A DNA stretch of 64,000 nucleotides from a virus (IMGVR_UViG_3300045988_005108:1-64000), one strand, 5' to 3'; positions 34,230 to 43,105 are shown, numbered from the stretch's first letter. The notes: generated by a model from the sequence alone, not told the origin. Numbers and translations are program-made.

Positions 34230-37200
34230 TTATAAACTATATAATGTTGGAGCACCACAAATACTATCACCATTCTCATCCTTATACTCTGTATTAGGCT
34301 GAATAGTTGTCACATCATCAGCCTTAGGAGCATAAGTATCAAGAGGAGTACCATATACCTGTTGGAAGGCATCAGTATCTACTTGTGGAATAGAATCCCA
34401 ATACTCTTGAGGCATATCTTGATAATCAGGCATAGAATCATAATCAACCTCAGCATCTCCAAGGTCAAATCTTGACAATGTATCTGCATAAGGGTCATAA
34501 TCTTTCCTGTTCTTATCAATTACAGTTTCCATCTCCTCTACATCCTTGCCATATTCATATTCAATGAAGCTGTTTCTGAAGCCTAATGGTTCAATCCTTT
34601 CATAGATTGCAACATTAGTTTGTTCAGTACCTACAGATGATAACTTGTAATAGACATAGTTTCCTCTGATTCTTCTACCTATATACTTAAAGAAGTCATA
34701 AGCAGGACCATCAGGAGTATCTATCCTTTTCTTGATAACTTTCTTATCTCCAAAGGTAGCATTATCATCAATTACAAATGTAACTTCATCCTTAACTTCA
34801 TTATCCTCTCCTATGAACTGGACAGAGGCTGTATCAGGGATTTCAGGAACCAACTTTCTATTATCCAAGTGATTATAGACATATTGGTCTACAAATTGAC
34901 TATAATCATCACTTGATGACAAGAGAGTTCTCAATGTACTTATGTACTCTGGGATAGCATTTCTCACTGCCACAGGTGCCAAATGGATAAAGGTTGAAGG
35001 TCCAAATGCAAAGCCATTCCTATAATAGCTGTATCTGAATAAGTTAAGAGCAAGTTTCTGAGCTTCTGGGTTACTCATATACAACAGAGATGCCCAATCT
35101 CTCATATATCTTTCTCTCAAAGTAGGACTTAACTGACCTACATTCTTAAACACTACTGTGTCTACAGGATTACTGTCATTTGCCCTAATTACCTTGAGTC
35201 TCTTAATAAATTCAAGGTCAGCTATATCCTCATTATCTGTAACCACTCTCTTGAAGTACTCAGGGAAATTATTAATGAAGTCCTTTCTCTTATCAGAGGA
35301 AGTTACAATAATATCACCTACTTCTGAGTCTGGGTTTACAATCAATTCAGAACCAAAGAATCCATTCTTTGACATGATGTAGGCAAGCAAGTCATTATAA
35401 ATACTATTCATAGTCTTTACATTCAACTTACCAGTCTTTGTCATGTCTCTAAGGTCATCAATTACAGTTCTGAATGATTCAGTATATTGAGGGAAGTAAG
35501 ACCCTAACATTTCCTCTGTTTTCTGTAAGCCAAGAGTGTAGAAAGCCTGTAAGAAGGGAAGAGGAGCAGACAATAGTCTTTCTCTTAGAGTGTCAGTGTC
35601 AGGATTGTCTGATAACAGACCATCAAGTATTACATTGGCATTCTTCAATGGAAACTTGTCATTATTCTCTATCTGGTCTAACAGGTCTTTTACTTTCTGC
35701 ATCTTTAACTCTGTATCTGCAATAGTAGGACCAGCAGCACCTCCTTGGGTATCAGACCTTGTAGCTTGTACTAATTGTCCTAAAGCATCAGCAGAGTTCA
35801 TAATTCTCTTGAACAAATATCCAACTGCAACTTGTTTCTGGTAGAACTCAATTTTTCTGAAATCAGAAGTCTGAGACCTGTCAGTAACAGCCTCCTTAGC
35901 AAGCATTATATTGTCTGCAAGCTCTTCAATATAGAAGCTATTATTCTTGTAGTTATCATAAGTCAAGTCACTATTAAGAGCAGCCTTCTCCTTATACTTA
36001 TCCAGTACTTCATCAATGATAGTATCTTTGCCTTTACCTTCTCTACTCTCTCTAAAATAGGTCTGAGTAATCTCTTGAACTATAGGCTGCATCATTAACA
36101 AACCTATCTCAATAGGGTTATAACCTAATCTTGAGAGAAGCATAGAAGCATCAGCAGTGAAAGTATTCTGATTAAGTGCTGCAAGCACAGGGTCTTTAAC
36201 ATTATCCACAGAAGCAGCCAAGAATCCAGCATTATTCTTTGAGATAAATTCCTTGTCACCATTCATAATATCATGTAAAGATGTAAGTCTCTTTCCATTC
36301 AATACAAATGAGCCATTTTCTTCATCCAAAGCTAACTGAGTATGTTGCATCAAAGCATGATTTGCATTATGGTTGGCATAAATACCAATCAACTTAGCAC
36401 CAGTCATGTTCTGCTGATGTAACATTACCTGAGTTCTTGGTGATAATGGGTCCATCTTGACCTTTGTCTTTTCTGCCAACTTATCAAGAGTATCAAGGTC
36501 TAAGTCAAATAGATATGAAGCAATAGACTTGGGATAAGACTTTCCACCTTTCTGTACAGTCTTATTAAGTTCTACACCTACATCCTTTAATGCTTGAGCC
36601 AAGTCACTCTCATAAGAATCATTGAGAATGGTCATTATTCTTGCAGACTTCTTCTGATAATCAAAGCCACCTGGGTTAAGAATTTTTGAAGCTGTATCTG
36701 CATTAGTCAGAACTCCATACATCATATCTATCAGCAAGTTATTTCTTGCTTTAAGACTGTTCTCCTGTGGAGATTTATTGAAGTCATACTTTACCTTGCT
36801 TATAATAGGCTTGGCAAGTCTGTACTTCTCTTTATTCTCCTTGAACCATTCCTTAAAGTCATCAGTATCTGCATTGAGAATATCCTCTGCTAATTGGCTA
36901 TGAGTGAATTGTGACAATACTTGATTGAATAAGCTATTCATTCTTGCATAGTCTTCTCTTGCCTGTCTCATATCATACTTCTTAACTCTGAACTCAGGTA
37001 ACATGATATACATCTTATCCACATCAAAGTCAGAACCTGATAGAGTAGTAATCTCAGCAGGAAGCATAATTGCAGAACCATTCTGTTGAGGAAGGAATCC
37101 CTTAATATACAGAGGAGCCATTGAATATTTATCCTCCGTTGGGACTCTATATCCAATCAACTTTCTCAAATCCTCAGGAAGTTTAGTTACATCAAGCTGG

Positions 37201-37883
37201 TGAGTATTTGGGTCCATGAGAGGCTCATAGAACTCTCTACTATATGCAGGCATATAACATTCAAGATACTTAATCCTCTTGTTAGCACCTTCACCTTCAA
37301 ATACTACATGAAGTTCATCAGTCAAGCCATAATCAGATACCTGAATTAAAGCTCCACCTCTAATCTTCTGTTTAGTAATTCTACTCTTGATTACACTATT
37401 AAGGAGTGTCTGTACTCTTTGAGATTGCACAGGGTCAAAGAGAGGGATATTGAAGTTGTTGTTCTCATCAAGAGTACAAGCCCTCATCATATCCACACCA
37501 TATCTTTGATTACCCCTTATCTCTTCAAGTAAGATTTCCTCTACTTTCTCTGGTTTTTTGAATATCTCATCTACATCAGCAAATGCTTGAAGAATATTCT
37601 CAGTATTGATGGCATTATACAGGTCAAGCCATTCTTTCTTAGTCATCTTCTTACCATCAACCTCAATGATTGTGTCATCAGAGATGTCAGCAGTAATTAG
37701 TTTTCTAATCTGAGTACCTACCAACTGAACTGCATCAATAGCATGTTCAGGAGTTGCAGTCTGAATACCATAATCTTCATAAGATACCTTATGTACTACA
37801 TTAGGATTCTCATTACCAAATCCAATGCCTGTAGCATCTTTAAGCCTCTGAATTACATCAGCCTCTGTATTTACATCATTCAA
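34230..37883 (-). CDS. virion RNA polymerase, catalytic part (beta'-like DPBB motif); probably exon 2 of an intron-split gene
   Basis: LSGSDFDVDKMY (DFDVD at 37017-37031) matches the universal NADFDGDQM metal-binding motif. The track start is TTG, there is no ATG for the first 79 codons, and the frame stays open upstream to 37925. Confidence 0.8.
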   Translation of the reverse strand: MNDVNTEADVIQRLKDATGIGFGNENPNVVHKVSYEDYGIQTATPEHAIDAVQLVGTQIRKLITADISDDTIIEVDGKKMTKKEWLDLYNAINTENILQAFADVDEIFKKPEKVEEILLEEIRGNQRYGVDMMRACTLDENNNFNIPLFDPVQSQRVQTLLNSVIKSRITKQKIRGGALIQVSDYGLTDELHVVFEGEGANKRIKYLECYMPAYSREFYEPLMDPNTHQLDVTKLPEDLRKLIGYRVPTEDKYSMAPLYIKGFLPQQNGSAIMLPAEITTLSGSDFDVDKMYIMLPEFRVKKYDMRQAREDYARMNSLFNQVLSQFTHSQLAEDILNADTDDFKEWFKENKEKYRLAKPIISKVKYDFNKSPQENSLKARNNLLIDMMYGVLTNADTASKILNPGGFDYQKKSARIMTILNDSYESDLAQALKDVGVELNKTVQKGGKSYPKSIASYLFDLDLDTLDKLAEKTKVKMDPLSPRTQVMLHQQNMTGAKLIGIYANHNANHALMQHTQLALDEENGSFVLNGKRLTSLHDIMNGDKEFISKNNAGFLAASVDNVKDPVLAALNQNTFTADASMLLSRLGYNPIEIGLLMMQPIVQEITQTYFRESREGKGKDTIIDEVLDKYKEKAALNSDLTYDNYKNNSFYIEELADNIMLAKEAVTDRSQTSDFRKIEFYQKQVAVGYLFKRIMNSADALGQLVQATRSDTQGGAAGPTIADTELKMQKVKDLLDQIENNDKFPLKNANVILDGLLSDNPDTDTLRERLLSAPLPFLQAFYTLGLQKTEEMLGSYFPQYTESFRTVIDDLRDMTKTGKLNVKTMNSIYNDLLAYIMSKNGFFGSELIVNPDSEVGDIIVTSSDKRKDFINNFPEYFKRVVTDNEDIADLEFIKRLKVIRANDSNPVDTVVFKNVGQLSPTLRERYMRDWASLLYMSNPEAQKLALNLFRYSYYRNGFAFGPSTFIHLAPVAVRNAIPEYISTLRTLLSSSDDYSQFVDQYVYNHLDNRKLVPEIPDTASVQFIGEDNEVKDEVTFVIDDNATFGDKKVIKKRIDTPDGPAYDFFKYIGRRIRGNYVYYKLSSVGTEQTNVAIYERIEPLGFRNSFIEYEYGKDVEEMETVIDKNRKDYDPYADTLSRFDLGDAEVDYDSMPDYQDMPQEYWDSIPQVDTDAFQQVYGTPLDTYAPKADDVTTIQPNTEYKDENGDSICGAPTLYSL

Positions 37884-37938
37884 ATCTATTACACCTTGTT
37901 TCAGTTTTGTTATCCTATAAGCTTTTTATCTCATAGTT

Positions 37939-38122
37939 CTTACATTTCATTTAATGTAAGCTCGGCGTACATTTTCATCTTTAGCTTTACCTATTAAGAT
38001 GCAGGACACTCTTGGGTCTATTATATTTATTCAAGACCTACGCTCTACACTACTAATTAACCTTTCGTAATTTAATTAGTTAGCTCGGTATTAGCATCTC
38101 AGCTTTCACCGATTTTGCCCTG
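37939..38122 (-). ncRNA. group I ribozyme core (P3 to P9)
   Basis: Minus-strand pairings: P3 CAGGGCA/TGTCCTG. J3/4 AAA. P4 TCGGT/ACCGA with A-rich J4/5 and J5/4. P6 hairpin with a GAAA tetraloop. P7 G-(A bulge)-GCGTA/TACGCC. P8 CATCTT/AAGATG. J8/7 AAAATG. P9 CTTACATT/AATGTAAG. Confidence 0.7.
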
Positions 38123-38133
38123 TAATTATATCA

Positions 38134-38901
38134 TTAATTACTTAATGATACGGCAAACAAATATTTATTATATTTTCTATCTAAGTAAACATGGGCATTA
38201 TTATAAATAGTATTTAAGAATTGTATTGCTTTACTGTGAGTAAATTTAGTTTCATAATAGTTGTTGTTACCATATTTAGTTACTAAGTTTTCAATACCAG
38301 TATACTTCAAACAATTTGTAACTATATTTAGAGTTCCTACTATATTAACTCTTGGATATGGTTTAGTACAATTCTTATGTTCATCTATTCCAACACTTCC
38401 ATCACCATCAAATACTCCTCTTACAAAAGGAATAACCAATGAAGAATCTTGGAATATACTCATACTTGGGAATTTCAAAATTAAAGATTTTCTTGGAGTG
38501 CATCCATAAGATATTAACATATCTTTTAAGTGCTTACTTTTATTCATTATACTATATGATGTATATTCTTTGTAATGTTTAATTCTTATTGGATTCTTTG
38601 AACTAATAAACTCTTTGAATTTCTCTAAGTGCTCTCTGTCTATCAATCCAATCTCTAAACTACCATTATCAGAAATACAACCATCAGCATAAATGAAACC
38701 TAGCCAATATGCTTTCTCCTCAGTATCAATATTATCAAATATATGCTCATTGAATTGAGCTTTTGATAGTTTGATATTAAAAGATTTAAGTATATAAGAT
38801 ACTGTAGTATAGTATATACCTAATTCTTCTGCAATTTCCTTAACTCTTTTTCCTTGTAAAGCAAGTTCTTTTACTTTTTCATAATTTACTCTTTTCTTCA
38901 T
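38134..38901 (-). CDS. LAGLIDADG homing endonuclease (double-motif) with N-terminal HTH
   Basis: Motif 1 YWLGFIYADGCI, motif 2 FVRGVFDGDGSVG. N-terminal KRVKEIAEELGIYYTTVSYILK. Very AT-rich. Confidence 0.9.
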   Translation of the reverse strand: MKKRVNYEKVKELALQGKRVKEIAEELGIYYTTVSYILKSFNIKLSKAQFNEHIFDNIDTEEKAYWLGFIYADGCISDNGSLEIGLIDREHLEKFKEFISSKNPIRIKHYKEYTSYSIMNKSKHLKDMLISYGCTPRKSLILKFPSMSIFQDSSLVIPFVRGVFDGDGSVGIDEHKNCTKPYPRVNIVGTLNIVTNCLKYTGIENLVTKYGNNNYYETKFTHSKAIQFLNTIYNNAHVYLDRKYNKYLFAVSLSN

Positions 38902-38923
38902 ATCATTACCTTTATATTTGCTA

Positions 38924-38931
38924 CAAAGGTA
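38924..38931 (-). promoter_or_regulatory. TAnnTTTG box upstream of the endonuclease ORF (promoter or part of an intron hairpin)
   Basis: Minus-strand TACCTTTG lies 22 nt upstream of the ATG at 38901. The same bases form a 7-bp hairpin TACCTTT/AAAGGTA, so the role is ambiguous. Confidence 0.3.
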
Positions 38932-38971
38932 GTAATAATTTATCTACTTAGCAAGGATATAAATAAAATAT

Positions 38972-41900
38972 TTATACTTTACCAACCTTAGTAGTAGACT
39001 CAAACTGAACTACATCAATCTGATTATCCTCCATAAACTTATTTATGGCTTTCAGCTTGCCTGACCTTCCTAAAGGACCAGCAATTAGTTCGTGCATAGC
39101 AAGTAATAGGAACTCTGAGTTCTTATGCTGTACAGGAGTCTTAATTCCAGTATGACCTTCAATGCCACTGTTATTATTGACTTGTGTATAAACATAAGGC
39201 TTCTTAGTCTGCCAAATGATATTGAAGTCTTTGATATTCCAATCTCCATTCTTGAAGTTGTTATATGCCTGCTCCATATCATCTGTCCACTGACCTGACA
39301 TACCAAGTATTGCCCTATAGGAACTCAAACTTCTATATGCCTGAGCATCTGCTACATTCACATTCTTAAACTTGTAAATGATATTGTCTCTGTCTATCTT
39401 GGTCATTTCATTTCTTCTAACCCTTTCATCAAGTACAGTCTTGATGTCTTCAAGTACAGAAGATATTATCTCATCATCCTTCAAGTAGATAGTTCTTTCC
39501 CAATCCCTACCAATTCTCTCACCTTTATAAGTAGCCTTAGTATTCAATCTAAGAGCAGGAGCATGAACCTCCTTATATCTCTTCTGAAAGTCCTCAAGGT
39601 TCTTATAGAAAGCAAGGTCAGTAGTAGTAAGCTGGATAATTTGTGAAGTAGCTAACTTACTGTTCCAATAGTACTCTCTAAGAGCATCTTTAGCATTGTT
39701 CTTAACAAACAGGCTTCTTGAGATTGACTGAGCATCTTTCAATTCCATCTCACCTCTTGTTGCCCTATCTGTCATCAGATTCTTAATCTGCTCCATCAGG
39801 TTATTGGCTTCCCTACTATCAAAAGCACTATTATTGTTATAGGCTCTAAGCATTAGTTCCATATTGGTATTCCACAATGAACCTAAAGCCTCTTTAGCCT
39901 TAATAAGTGCCTTTGCAGTTATTGCATTCTGCTTAGACTGACCTTCAAAAGGAAGATACTTGTACTTGCCATTAGGAAGTTCATCAAGCAGTCCTGCCCT
40001 TGACCAATCTCTGTAGGTTTGTTCAAAACCATCTTCCATCATGTCATTAAGAGTAGTTCTTAGAAAGTTTCTGAGTTCAGCACCAGTACCTGTGGATTTA
40101 AGTCTGCTTAACCTATCAATGAATGTTTCTCCATTGTCGTATCTGAGGTTGTTAAGTGCAGGAAGGAACTTAAATTCTGCACCTCCTATACTCTTTATAC
40201 TACCATCTTTCTTTCTGACAATATCATAGTTGGCAATAGGTTCTACATTCTTATCTCCACTCTGATAAGCATCATCCCTTTCTCTAACCAGCATGATTCT
40301 GTCATACTCTTGATTAACCAAGTCTACTAACTTGTCAAGGATAACATCATCATAGGCTCTTTTCTTACCATTTTCATCAAGTACATCACCTGTTGTGTAC
40401 TTTCTGAATCTGATAAACTCAGCAGAAGGACTATCTGAAAGAATAGGAACATGATACCAAGCATACTTTATACTTGACTTTGCAGAATCAGGGTCTCCCC
40501 AATACTCTGTAAGAAGAGCTAAAGTATAGTCCAAATCATCCCAATTGGTATAGTCTACTTTGTCAGAGTTCAGCACTACTTTATGGTTAAGACCTCTTCT
40601 CAATTCATCAGACTCTGCAAGCTGTCTTAGCCAGTCATTTCTCCAATGACCATCCTTAAAGAACCACTCATAATCCTTGAACTCAGTTTGCATAAACTGT
40701 TCAAATCTCTCCTTGTCATTCATAACATTCTTGAGATTCTTGATAAGTTTACCTAAATAGTTAGGAGTAACATGAGAATAGTAAGACTTATCATTCTCTC
40801 TGACACTACTTTCAATAGCATCCTCAGTTACCTCTGCCATCATACTTGCAATCATATTGTAAGCAGAGCCAAAAGTATTGATAAGGTCTCCTCTCTTCTC
40901 AGTACCATCCTCCCTTGTCTCAGACTTGACTTCACCTTTCTTAATACCACTGAATATGACATTCAATTGTGGTAAAAGAAGCATAATTGGGTCAGTAAAT
41001 GTGATACCTGGAGCTGTCTTTATATCAGTTAATGCAGTCTTTAATACAGAAGGATTAGCATCAATACCTAACATATGAAGTAACTTCATTATGGTATTCC
41101 ATACATCTTCTCTTTCCAAGAGTTGAAGTCTGGATTCTGTATCAAGGTTCTGGAACATATTGTTCAATGTCTCAGTCCATTGCAAACCCTTAGCTGCATT
41201 ATCCTTGTTTATTTCCCTATTCTTCTCATATACACTATCATCATCAAGCTGTACTCCATTCTCATAGTTATCTCTCCAAGCATCAAGGAGATAATACACA
41301 CCTTCAGGCTTATTAATGGCAATAGTTTCCATTTTGAAAGAACCATCAGGCATCATTCTTTTCTTTTGAATCCAGTAAGGCATAAAGTCCTTTCTGAAGT
41401 CTTGATAGAATTGAGAGAATAAAGTTTCATCACCTTGAAGTAATTCTATTATTTGATTAACCCAAGGTTTAATCTTAGCCACATTTTCCAATAAAGGAAT
41501 CATGTCATCAGAGTTAATCATATTCCTTAACTTGTCAATGAAAGTAGCATGAACATAGTCAGCATCAAGGTATCTTGTGAAACCTAAATCATCTTCTTCA
41601 TACATACCCTCATAATCAAGTTTAGGTACTTGTCTGATTACTTTTCTTACAGCTTGTGACAGAGACTCCTGTGAACTTACCTGTCTGAAATTGGTCATCC
41701 ACCCATCTTTATAAGCCTCTTCTTGTCTCCAATCCTCTGCTTCATTATCTACCTCACTGTTACCATCAGGGTCATCATCATTGAGGTTTGCATCAGCAGG
41801 TGCAATGTAGTTGGGGTCTATCCTAATACCCTCAGTCATTACAAGCAAAGTACTTGCTTCCTCAGCAAGAGCTTTATAAACACTAGGGTCATCAACTATC

Positions 41901-43105
41901 TTCTTATATTCCTGATTCTTATAAGCAGCTTTCTTCTTGGCAGCTTCCAACTTTTCTTCATCAGAAAATCTTTCAGATTCATCTATTTCTCCAGCTTCAA
42001 TAAGAGCATTTTCCTCAGCATTAATCTTATTAAGTTCTTGCTGTATTCTACCTTCTTCTGTATCCTGTACATAAGAATTGAAGATGTTAGCTACTCTCTT
42101 GAATATACCAGCAGGAGTGTACTTCTTTATAGCAGAGAACCTATCCAAGCTATTAAGCTCAGCCTGTAATTCTTCTTTCTCTACACCACTGGCATCATCA
42201 ATTCTTCTCTTCAAAGAATCAGTCATTTCCTGCAAGGCATTATCAACTTCATTACTGAAGAACCTTGCAATAAGGGTTACTCTATCTCTTCTCGTTTTTG
42301 GGTCAAAGAGTAAGTCCACCTTTTGCTGTTCCTCAACAGAAGTAATCCTTGGAGTATCAAAAGAACTGCTAAGTGTATCTGTAATTTTCTCTTCTGGTCT
42401 TGAAAGAAGGCTAATAGCCTTTTTTATCTGTATGGTATTATACTCCGTACTTCTTCCTTGTTTTAGAACATTATACTCTTTCTCAAAATAATCTTCTAAG
42501 GCAGTTCTTTTAACCATTAAGGTTTCAGGGTCAGTTTCAACAGCAGTACTATCCATCTTACTATACTTACCAGATTCTACTAAATCTCTAATAGATTCAG
42601 GAACAATCTTATTTATATTATTCCAATACCTATCATCATTAACATTAGTAACATTACTTCCACTACTATTGAATAAATCCCAAATCTTTCTTGTAGGACT
42701 TCCATAATAAATGGCAAAAGCACTGTTACCTGTAGTAGGACTGGTAAAGTCGATTCTGATTTCTGTTCCATTAGCTCCAGGATACATACTTACTTTAGTA
42801 GTTCCCTCACTAAATTTTTCTTTATCAAAGGAAGTACTAAGTAATTCTTCTCCTTTTTCTGTAAGAAAGCCCTTATCATTACCATTAACATTCACATATT
42901 TGCTAATAGACAAAGCAGTAATTGGGTCTTCCTTTCTTATTTCCTTAATAAAATCATTGAGTTCACTACCTAATGGAATATCCTCACTAGACTTATTATT
43001 CTTTTCCTGCCACAGTCCAACCAAGTTAAGTACTGATTGCTCTGTTTCATTAGGAAACTTCTTAGCTAATTCTCTAATTTCTGGTGTTATAATTAAACAA
43101 CTCAT
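38972..43105 (-). CDS. virion RNA polymerase, N-terminal part (probable exon 1; the reading frame runs a few codons into the intron)
   Basis: 1377-aa ORF, first gene after a terminator/promoter gap. Ends ...VQFESTTKVGKV* immediately before the intron-like region. Confidence 0.7.
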   Translation of the reverse strand: MSCLIITPEIRELAKKFPNETEQSVLNLVGLWQEKNNKSSEDIPLGSELNDFIKEIRKEDPITALSISKYVNVNGNDKGFLTEKGEELLSTSFDKEKFSEGTTKVSMYPGANGTEIRIDFTSPTTGNSAFAIYYGSPTRKIWDLFNSSGSNVTNVNDDRYWNNINKIVPESIRDLVESGKYSKMDSTAVETDPETLMVKRTALEDYFEKEYNVLKQGRSTEYNTIQIKKAISLLSRPEEKITDTLSSSFDTPRITSVEEQQKVDLLFDPKTRRDRVTLIARFFSNEVDNALQEMTDSLKRRIDDASGVEKEELQAELNSLDRFSAIKKYTPAGIFKRVANIFNSYVQDTEEGRIQQELNKINAEENALIEAGEIDESERFSDEEKLEAAKKKAAYKNQEYKKIVDDPSVYKALAEEASTLLVMTEGIRIDPNYIAPADANLNDDDPDGNSEVDNEAEDWRQEEAYKDGWMTNFRQVSSQESLSQAVRKVIRQVPKLDYEGMYEEDDLGFTRYLDADYVHATFIDKLRNMINSDDMIPLLENVAKIKPWVNQIIELLQGDETLFSQFYQDFRKDFMPYWIQKKRMMPDGSFKMETIAINKPEGVYYLLDAWRDNYENGVQLDDDSVYEKNREINKDNAAKGLQWTETLNNMFQNLDTESRLQLLEREDVWNTIMKLLHMLGIDANPSVLKTALTDIKTAPGITFTDPIMLLLPQLNVIFSGIKKGEVKSETREDGTEKRGDLINTFGSAYNMIASMMAEVTEDAIESSVRENDKSYYSHVTPNYLGKLIKNLKNVMNDKERFEQFMQTEFKDYEWFFKDGHWRNDWLRQLAESDELRRGLNHKVVLNSDKVDYTNWDDLDYTLALLTEYWGDPDSAKSSIKYAWYHVPILSDSPSAEFIRFRKYTTGDVLDENGKKRAYDDVILDKLVDLVNQEYDRIMLVRERDDAYQSGDKNVEPIANYDIVRKKDGSIKSIGGAEFKFLPALNNLRYDNGETFIDRLSRLKSTGTGAELRNFLRTTLNDMMEDGFEQTYRDWSRAGLLDELPNGKYKYLPFEGQSKQNAITAKALIKAKEALGSLWNTNMELMLRAYNNNSAFDSREANNLMEQIKNLMTDRATRGEMELKDAQSISRSLFVKNNAKDALREYYWNSKLATSQIIQLTTTDLAFYKNLEDFQKRYKEVHAPALRLNTKATYKGERIGRDWERTIYLKDDEIISSVLEDIKTVLDERVRRNEMTKIDRDNIIYKFKNVNVADAQAYRSLSSYRAILGMSGQWTDDMEQAYNNFKNGDWNIKDFNIIWQTKKPYVYTQVNNNSGIEGHTGIKTPVQHKNSEFLLLAMHELIAGPLGRSGKLKAINKFMEDNQIDVVQFESTTKVGKV

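Follow-up and report, generated by a model that had tools for sequence, protein, structure and literature searches.

A candidate mobile group I intron in the virion RNA polymerase gene of a Steigviridae-like crAss phage

The viral sequence IMGVR_UViG_3300045988_005108 (positions 1-64000; this whole 64,000-nt stretch is called the window below) contains on its minus strand two giant open reading frames (ORFs) of 1377 aa (38972..43105) and 1217 aa (34230..37883), and the question raised by this locus is whether these are two genes or one. Between them lies an ORF of 255 aa (38134..38901), which is separated from the 1217-aa ORF by about 230 nt without any ORF. An earlier note on this DNA had read the arrangement as a virion RNA polymerase (RNAP) gene interrupted by an IA-like group I intron with a LAGLIDADG gene. 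It had described the ORFs correctly, including the TTG start that the ORF finder assigned to the 1217-aa ORF, whose frame is open back to 37925 and whose first methionine comes about 79 codons past the TTG. We find that this reading is borne out by the homology of the spliced ORF, by a covarying ribozyme core and by the exact in-frame excision that intron-less alleles define. As the best-supported interpretation, we take the element for a mobile group I intron that interrupts the RNAP gene of a Steigviridae-like crAss phage; the structural prerequisites are present, and from these we infer catalysis and mobility.

The interrupted polymerase gene and the limits of the insert

38981..43105, minus strand: RNAP exon 1, 1375 codons, ending ...AAG GTT GGT
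37902..38980, minus strand: predicted group I intron, 1,079 nt, phase 0; first base A38980, last base G37902 (omega-G)
34230..37901, minus strand: RNAP exon 2, 1223 codons plus stop, beginning AAA CAA GGT and holding the DFDVD motif

Joined end to end, the two exons form a single ORF of 2,598 aa that reads ...FESTTKVG-KQGVIDLNDV... across the junction (a hyphen marks the splice site here and below), with the intron sitting between codons 1375 and 1376 (..KVG-KQG..). Residues 239-2590 of the spliced ORF are collinear with the protein of the uncultured phage cr85_1 (Steigviridae, Kahnovirus oralis) at 87.6% identity, and in cr85_1 this protein is encoded by one 2401-aa coding sequence (CDS) annotated as 'putative RNA polymerase'. 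By megablast against GenBank phages, a 1498-aa CDS of Bajarodcaudo virus 1 was also found to span the insertion point uninterrupted, and the spliced ORF aligns with the two pieces of the protein of this virus at 89-90% identity. Comparison with uninterrupted relatives, a check proposed in the earlier note, thus revealed one continuous ORF across the site and not two separate genes, and located the junction.

The identity of the gene follows from an 800-aa stretch across the junction that matches PDB 6VR4, the phi14:2 gp66 virion RNAP, with E = 1.1e-26. In this alignment the DxDxD motif of the spliced ORF (GSDFDVDKMYIMLP) falls opposite that of 6VR4 (GSDFDIDKMYVMLP). The catalytic DFDVD motif occupies spliced residues 1666-1670 in exon 2, and the intron site lies about 290 residues upstream of it, in a segment that itself aligns to 6VR4 (..TTKVGKQG.. 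against ..GVKVGATT..). Residues 736-1375 of exon 1 gave no match when searched alone against PDB, and the span containing the junction and DFDVD was required. These alignments support the assignment of the interrupted gene to the crAss-type virion RNAPs (phi14:2 gp66-like), and, judged at the level of sequence, the giant ORFs, both 'hypothetical', together make up one virion RNAP of 2,598 aa.

The limits of the insert follow from the same relatives. The alleles without the intron, which are those of cr85_1, of Bajarodcaudo virus 1 and of 87 IMG/VR contigs, continue uninterrupted across the site with the sequence ...ACTAAGGTTGGT-AAACAAGGTGT..., at the nucleotide level GTTGGT-AAACAAGG. Homology of exon 1 to the cr85_1 and Bajarodcaudo virus 1 genes stops at 38978-38981, and that of exon 2 to the intact gene begins exactly at the base after G37902. 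In blastn against the two uninterrupted genes, the upstream similarity ends ...ACTAAGGTTGGTAAA (38978) and resumes with AAACAAGGTGTAATAG (37901), so that the two alignments overlap by three A's and leave a 3-nt AAA ambiguity. As only the division GGT-...G-AAA gives a U at the 5' site and a G at the 3' site, we place the splice sites after U38981 and after G37902. The 3' tail common to homologous introns, GATAACAAAACTG, likewise ends at G37902, and similarity among homologues vanishes beyond it. The predicted ligated junction is ...ACUAAGGUUGGU joined to AAACAAGGUGUA..., encoding the junction peptide ...TTKVGKQGVIDLNDVNTEADVIQR. Without splicing, the frame of exon 1 continues through AAA GTA into a TAA stop, and these two intron codons account for the 1377-aa length of the ORF.

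The splice sites are where the earlier note has to be revised most. It had put the feature at 37894-38989, where we obtain 37902-38980, and had offered two sets of sites. In the first, a 5' site after U38990 is contradicted by GGTTGGT (38987-38981), which every intron-less allele retains; the proposed guide CCTTG (38952-38956) does fall in the P1 guide region but in the wrong register, the pair at the splice site being U38981•G38952 instead; and of the two 3' sites suggested, G37902 stands while G37914 fails, since the conserved family tail runs on to G37902. The second set, with a 5' site after 38985 and the junction AAGGT-TGTAAT, would delete GKQG, which is conserved in relatives, and its product ...TKV-VIDL... 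gives way to the peptide shown above. The 11-nt guide invoked for it (38926-38936) is one arm of a hairpin over the endonuclease ribosome-binding site.

In IMG/VR, the uninterrupted junction ACTAARGTTGGNAAACAAGGTGT is present in 87 contigs and the exon-1/intron junction in two (~97 and ~102 kb), where the intron occupies the same insertion site as in the window. The endonucleases of these two copies are 93% and 91% identical to that of the window. An exact 37-nt search of IMG/VR with the window's own 3' intron junction gave no match, because the close intron copies differ in P9.1. Seen from these alleles, the insert occurs sporadically, and with exact limits, in an RNAP gene that is continuous without it.

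Two further observations concern the exons. In the intron-bearing contig IMGVR_UViG_3300045988_051022 (L015 ~2520-2560), exon 2 matches the window for about 25 nt past the splice site and then diverges fully, whereas in the second intron-bearing contig it remains collinear; the break may be a recombination or co-conversion boundary adjoining the intron. Moreover, the spliced RNAP carries about 175 extra N-terminal residues (residues ~66-240; ~42385-42910, minus strand) not found in cr85_1 or Bajarodcaudo virus 1. The segment is in frame and free of stops, blastp alignments skip from residues 1-65 to 239 onward, and a PHROG search with it was without match; it may represent a variable domain or an in-frame insertion.

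The predicted ribozyme fold

The insert can be folded into the elements listed here, among which every helix from P3 to P9, and J8/7, lies where the earlier note had placed it.

38948..38985, minus strand: P1 stem-loop, UUGGU-AA (38985-38979) with internal guide UUGCUAA (38954-38948), 7 bp
38129..38150, minus strand: P2 hairpin, UAUCAUUAA/UUAAUGAUA, spanning the endonuclease stop codon (38136-38134)
38122-38116, minus strand: P3 5' strand, CAGGGCA, pairing with the 3' strand UGUCCUG (38008-38002)
between P3 and P4, minus strand: J3/4, AAA
38112-38108/38089-38085, minus strand: P4, UCGGU/ACCGA
38104-38102/38095-38093, minus strand: P5, AGC/GCU, 3 bp, with A-rich J4/5 and J5/4
38084-38072/38060-38049, minus strand: P6, capped by a conserved AUUACGAAAGG loop
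38045-38039/37969-37964, minus strand: P7, G-(A38044 bulge)-GCGUA with UACGCC
38038-38034/38019-38015, minus strand: P7.1, GGUCU/AGACC, between P7 and the 3' strand of P3 (P3')
38001-37996/37981-37976, minus strand: P8, CAUCUU/AAGAUG
37975-37970, minus strand: J8/7, AAAAUG
37960-37953/37946-37939, minus strand: P9, CUUACAUU/AAUGUAAG
37936-37930/37921-37915, minus strand: P9.1, CUAUGAG/CUUAUAG
to 37902, minus strand: conserved 3' tail GAUAACAAAACUG, last base omega-G37902

P1 is both the minimum free energy (MFE) and the centroid fold of 38992-38895 (z = -3.07). In it U38981 forms a wobble pair with G38952 at the 5' splice site, and a 9-bp AU helix between GUAUAAAUA (38977-38969) and UAUUUAUAU (38965-38957) lengthens the stem; C38956, unpaired in this fold, is U in both other intron copies. 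The core helices follow in the canonical P3-P9 order, P3 and P7 cross to form a pseudoknot, and the homologues have a hairpin equivalent to P2 immediately 5' of P3. MFE folding of the single sequence without constraints gives P2, P3, P4, P5, P6, P7.1, P8, P9 and P9.1 with z = -4.65, none of 200 shuffles being as good.

Covariation was counted in an alignment of 12 sequences, the window and 11 homologues, using the helices of the earlier note with P7 written as a pseudoknot. Standard pairs fill 95.0% of the cells, against a shuffle mean of 72% (0 of 500 shuffles reach the observed value), and sliding the partners by 1-3 columns as a control gave 30-42% pairing. Compensatory changes occur in 39 of the 56 pairs, with 5/7 in P3, 2/5 in P4, 2/3 in P5, 8/9 in P6, 5/5 in P7.1, 4/6 in P8, 5/8 in P9 and 6/7 in P9.1. 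P7 and P7.1 are both 100% paired; in P7 two of the six pairs have changed in a compensatory manner (one pair is A-U in six sequences and G-C in six) and the other four are invariant. Among these pairs G38043-C37965, next to the P7 bulge, is identical in all 12 sequences and is presumed to be the guanosine-binding pair. Unguided, RNAalifold predicted P3, P4, P5, P6, P7.1, P9 and P9.1. Compensatory differences separate the three copies of the window's intron in P4 (U-A to A-U), P9 and P9.1, which points to ongoing selection on the fold.

In the Michel-Westhof scheme, the hallmark of subgroup IA is one or more extra helices (P7.1/P7.2) separating the 5' strand of P7 from P3'. The P7.1 helix of the window, covarying at all of its pairs and in some homologues enclosing a further nested helix in its loop, supports an IA-type architecture for the modeled fold, as the earlier note had suggested. 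The same note had called the non-coding sequence GC-richer, which is true relative to the endonuclease ORF (0.35-0.36 against 0.22-0.31) but does not apply relative to the exons (0.37-0.42).

Some observations weigh against this interpretation. Rfam RF00028, the scan suggested in the earlier note, gave no match at the gathering threshold in the window, nor at E <= 10 in 37700-39200. P10 is weak, with only A37901/A37900 pairing to U38953/U38954, and the subgroup call draws on P7.1 and the Michel-Westhof scheme. As to the first point, RF00028 at E <= 1 also misses all 11 homologous introns, including that of SscS-F1, which is naturally ORF-less, while in the same run it detects the unrelated intron of Bajarodcaudo virus 1 at 47 bits. 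The miss therefore reflects the coverage of the model, and is uninformative rather than a refutation of the intron. A study of Bacillus phage introns (2025; PMC11878797) similarly describes the Rfam model as incomplete and liable to miss introns of phages. A profile of the 11 homologues, from which the window was left out, matches 38138-37892 with E = 8e-61, far beyond chance, and the copy there is the only one in the window. When P1 was searched for by eye in distant homologues, cr118_1, cr6_1 and PJN02 were ambiguous in AT-rich sequence, and SscS-F1 gave a clean P1 and P10.

Rfam also returned low-scoring matches to other models (Trp_leader_2, c-di-GMP-I, sn668 and mir-17), which we attribute to chance. 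The c-di-GMP-I match covers P3-J3/4-P4-P5 (GGCAAAAUCGGUGAAAGC; 38084-38129, minus strand) with 17.3 bits and E = 2, where the threshold is 35, and a riboswitch at P3-P5 was judged a chance resemblance.

Could the insert belong to another class, as an intein or a group II intron would, or be dealt with at another level, by programmed frameshifting or bypass? Yutin et al. (PMC7886860) describe inteins, along with other forms of recoding, in crAss-like phages. The insert of the window is, however, out of frame with the exons, with TAA two codons in and many stops in all frames, and an intein is excluded by these stop codons. No group II Rfam match was found in the window, and Pfam shows no reverse-transcriptase domain for the internal ORF; the fold, together with the missing reverse transcriptase, excludes a group II intron. 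With a covariation-backed fold that is the group I P3-P9 core, we give this whole class of explanations practically no weight.

Alternatively, the ribozyme could be a dead relic, the RNAP being made as two polypeptides (1377 and ~1217 aa) and the endonuclease being a free-standing selfish gene. Zeta-group crAss-like phages are reported to have fragmented RNAP ORFs whose mode of expression is not known (PMC7886860), and the annotators of Bajarodcaudo virus 1 kept the halves of a differently interrupted gene as separate proteins. We nevertheless regard a relic as very unlikely. The invariant P7 G-C pair, J8/7, the U•G wobble and the terminal G are all intact, and the substitutions in P4, P9 and P9.1 of the close copies are compensatory rather than random. 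Furthermore, exon 2 runs for about 85 codons without an ATG, its homology starts exactly after G37902, and the interruption lies within an unbroken stretch of conserved sequence alignable to 6VR4. Our confidence is high that the insert is a bona fide group I intron with the boundaries 38980..37902.

The encoded endonuclease and the proposed mechanism

38134..38901, minus strand: endonuclease ORF, 255 aa, N-terminal HTH and two LAGLIDADG motifs, between P1 and P2
38901..38937, minus strand: predicted hairpin over the endonuclease ribosome-binding site, core UACCUUUGUA/UAUAAAGGUA, enclosing purine-rich AAAGG just before the ATG (38901-38899) and abutting this start codon

The 255-aa ORF lies outside the catalytic core and leaves P3-P9.1 contiguous. 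It matches Pfam LAGLIDADG_3 with 28 bits (cutoff 22.5) and PHROG 4645 'endonuclease' with 8e-51, in agreement with the LAGLIDADG gene of the earlier note, and tblastn found 142 phage records with matches to intron-encoded or 'DOD' homing endonucleases. Its two LAGLIDADG motifs read LGFIYADG and VRGVFDGDG (contexts ..YWLGFIYADGCI.. and ..PFVRGVFDGDGSV..). By these sequence criteria, the internal ORF is a double-motif LAGLIDADG homing endonuclease. The hairpin at 38937-38901 probably restrains its translation, as is common for intron ORFs. Separately, a 9-nt direct repeat, TAATGATAT, overlaps the endonuclease start and stop codons (38908-38900 and 38136-38128, minus strand). It could be a trace of the entry of the ORF into an ORF-less intron, or an alternative pairing with UAUCAUUA (38150-38143), but as the window has four copies against 2.4 expected by chance, coincidence is possible too.

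We suggest that the RNAP gene and the intron are transcribed as a single precursor, in which the RNA would fold into P1-P9.1. Exogenous guanosine would dock at G38043-C37965 in P7 and attack the phosphodiester after U38981, which its wobble with G38952 in the internal guide would keep in P1. In the next step the guanosine site would be taken by the terminal G37902, and the exons would be ligated as GUUGGU-AAACAAGG, restoring the 2,598-aa RNAP ORF. By analogy with other phage introns, the LAGLIDADG endonuclease may cut the intron-less allele (..GGTTGGTAAACAAGG..; site DNA ACTACTAAGGTTGGTAAACAAGGTGTAATAG) in co-infecting relatives, and repair of the break would then copy the intron into the cut allele (homing). 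In this scheme we infer the catalysis, its timing, the endonuclease target and the homing. The presence/absence polymorphism, with two contigs carrying the intron and 87 without it, lends indirect support to cleavage of the intron-less allele.

Another option is that the ribozyme splices but that the LAGLIDADG protein acts mainly as a maturase, or is nuclease-inactive, so that the intron is no longer mobile. Such ORFs are labeled 'intron-encoded endonuclease maturase' in a figure legend of Yutin et al. (PMC7886860), and the presence of the intron in only two of 89 related IMG/VR contigs amounts to limited spread within the lineage. A sporadic distribution is, however, equally expected from a recent homing invasion. 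As the acidic residues are kept in both motifs (..YADG.. and ..DGDG..) and each of the three copies has an intact ORF, with 91-93% identity, we consider loss of mobility unlikely and favor a mobile intron. If splicing takes place as proposed, an RNAP that is packaged in the virion to start the next infection would depend on an RNA-splicing step. The rarity of the intron in this lineage (2/89 IMG/VR relatives) would make its presence a convenient natural marker for homing that took place recently among co-infecting gut phages.

The ribozyme family and known phage introns

A sensitive blastn search with the 261-nt core retrieved 55 phage records, whose nucleotide identity to the core is 67-81% across about 230 nt. 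They include Clostridioides (phiCD211-like), Bacillus (PJN02), Staphylococcus (SscS-F1, BE20), Arcanobacterium and Leptolyngbya phages, uncultured gut phages, and the crAss-like phages cr6_1, cr118_1, cr111_1, cr7_1 and cr131_1. Every annotated record that was examined has the core homologue between two pieces of one gene or of same-named adjacent ORFs, often with an endonuclease ORF just upstream. The split host genes are:

cr6_1: ATPase
PJN02: RecD-like helicase
cr118_1: helicase
Lbo-JY46: DNA polymerase (only the upstream piece annotated as polymerase)
SscS-F1, TPWB06 and SA2: terminase large subunit
phiCDIF1296T: tail / tape-measure

The family shares its set of helices and the GATAACAAnnnG 3' end with the window. 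Its host genes are P-loop NTPases, TerL, DNA polymerase and tail genes, none of those examined being an RNAP as in the window, and its passenger ORF is LAGLIDADG, HNH or none, where the window has LAGLIDADG. We found no paper on splicing tests for any member of this family. As Rfam overlooks this family in viral contigs that number well over a hundred, split genes are mis-called in phage metagenomes.

The insertion sites within the family show a pattern of their own. The window and five of the 11 homologues (L003, L005, L006, L011 and L013) are inserted at GGT-AAR. In the five homologues this sequence encodes the Gly-Lys of Walker-A (GK[ST]) motifs in ATPases, helicases and terminases, while the GGT-AAA of the window is not a P-loop. 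The 3'-core pattern was found in at least 119 stretches of IMG/VR viral contigs (L017-L135) with at least 75 different insertion sites, and among the matches listed about 17 of 78 distinct 3'-exon contexts begin with AAR, about 10 of these followed by a Ser/Thr codon. This preference may be plain targeting of conserved motifs. Since the same core with LAGLIDADG, HNH or no ORF sits at GGU-AAR in unrelated genes, one might alternatively propose that the sites are picked via RNA rather than by the endonuclease, through reverse splicing into GGU-AAR transcripts that match the short guide. We find this idea improbable; if true, the insertion in the RNAP gene would be an ectopic transposition event, and RNA-guided choice would explain how the family crosses phages of Firmicutes, Actinobacteria, Cyanobacteria and Bacteroidota.

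The orthologous RNAP gene of Bajarodcaudo virus 1 (PQ006092; L001 7421-8314) holds a different group I intron, with an 'endonuclease' ORF of its own. Exon 1 there ends ..AGTGACTTCGAT and exon 2 starts GTTGATAAAATG, splitting the catalytic motif as D-F-D-V-D between its third and fourth residues, and the record annotates the RNAP halves as separate hypothetical proteins. The ribozyme of this intron, which scores 47 and 32 bits with RF00028, just below the 50-bit threshold, is unrelated in sequence to that of the window, lies at another site and is not present in the window.

Within the crAss-like phages, Yutin et al. (2021; PMC7886860) describe group I introns in the core genes MCP, PolB, primase and ATPase, and the legend of their Fig. 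3 marks a LAGLIDADG 'intron-encoded endonuclease maturase' within the transcription gene block. Their identification relied on protein domains, the introns being for the most part from the Delta and Zeta groups, and alpha-gamma genomes are said to be without such insertions. Set beside the introns treated there, that of the window belongs to the same virus order and is the same kind of element, in a phage whose nearest relative is cr85_1 (Steigviridae, Kahnovirus), and it adds the ribozyme structure and the exact junction. The crAss-like cr6_1 (ATPase gene) and cr118_1 (helicase gene) carry ribozyme cores homologous to that of the window.

In the T4 introns the ORF is placed in P6 or P9.1. The window differs in having it between P1 and P2. 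It is also unlike the IA2-type phage introns in lacking an RF00028 match and in having a P5 of only 3 bp. In other respects it resembles these introns (T4 td/nrdB/sunY, Twort orf142 and those of Bacillus phages; PMC11878797 for the last), sharing the P1-P9 core with P7.1, the P7 bulge followed by a G-C pair, the A-rich J3/4, J4/5 and J8/7, the U•G at the 5' splice site and a G as the last base, with an endonuclease ORF that loops away from the core and an insertion point in a conserved stretch of an essential gene. In conclusion, knowledge of group I introns in general is left unchanged, and the intron of the window is not a new kind of element but an ordinary instance of a widespread, already known phage mobile element.

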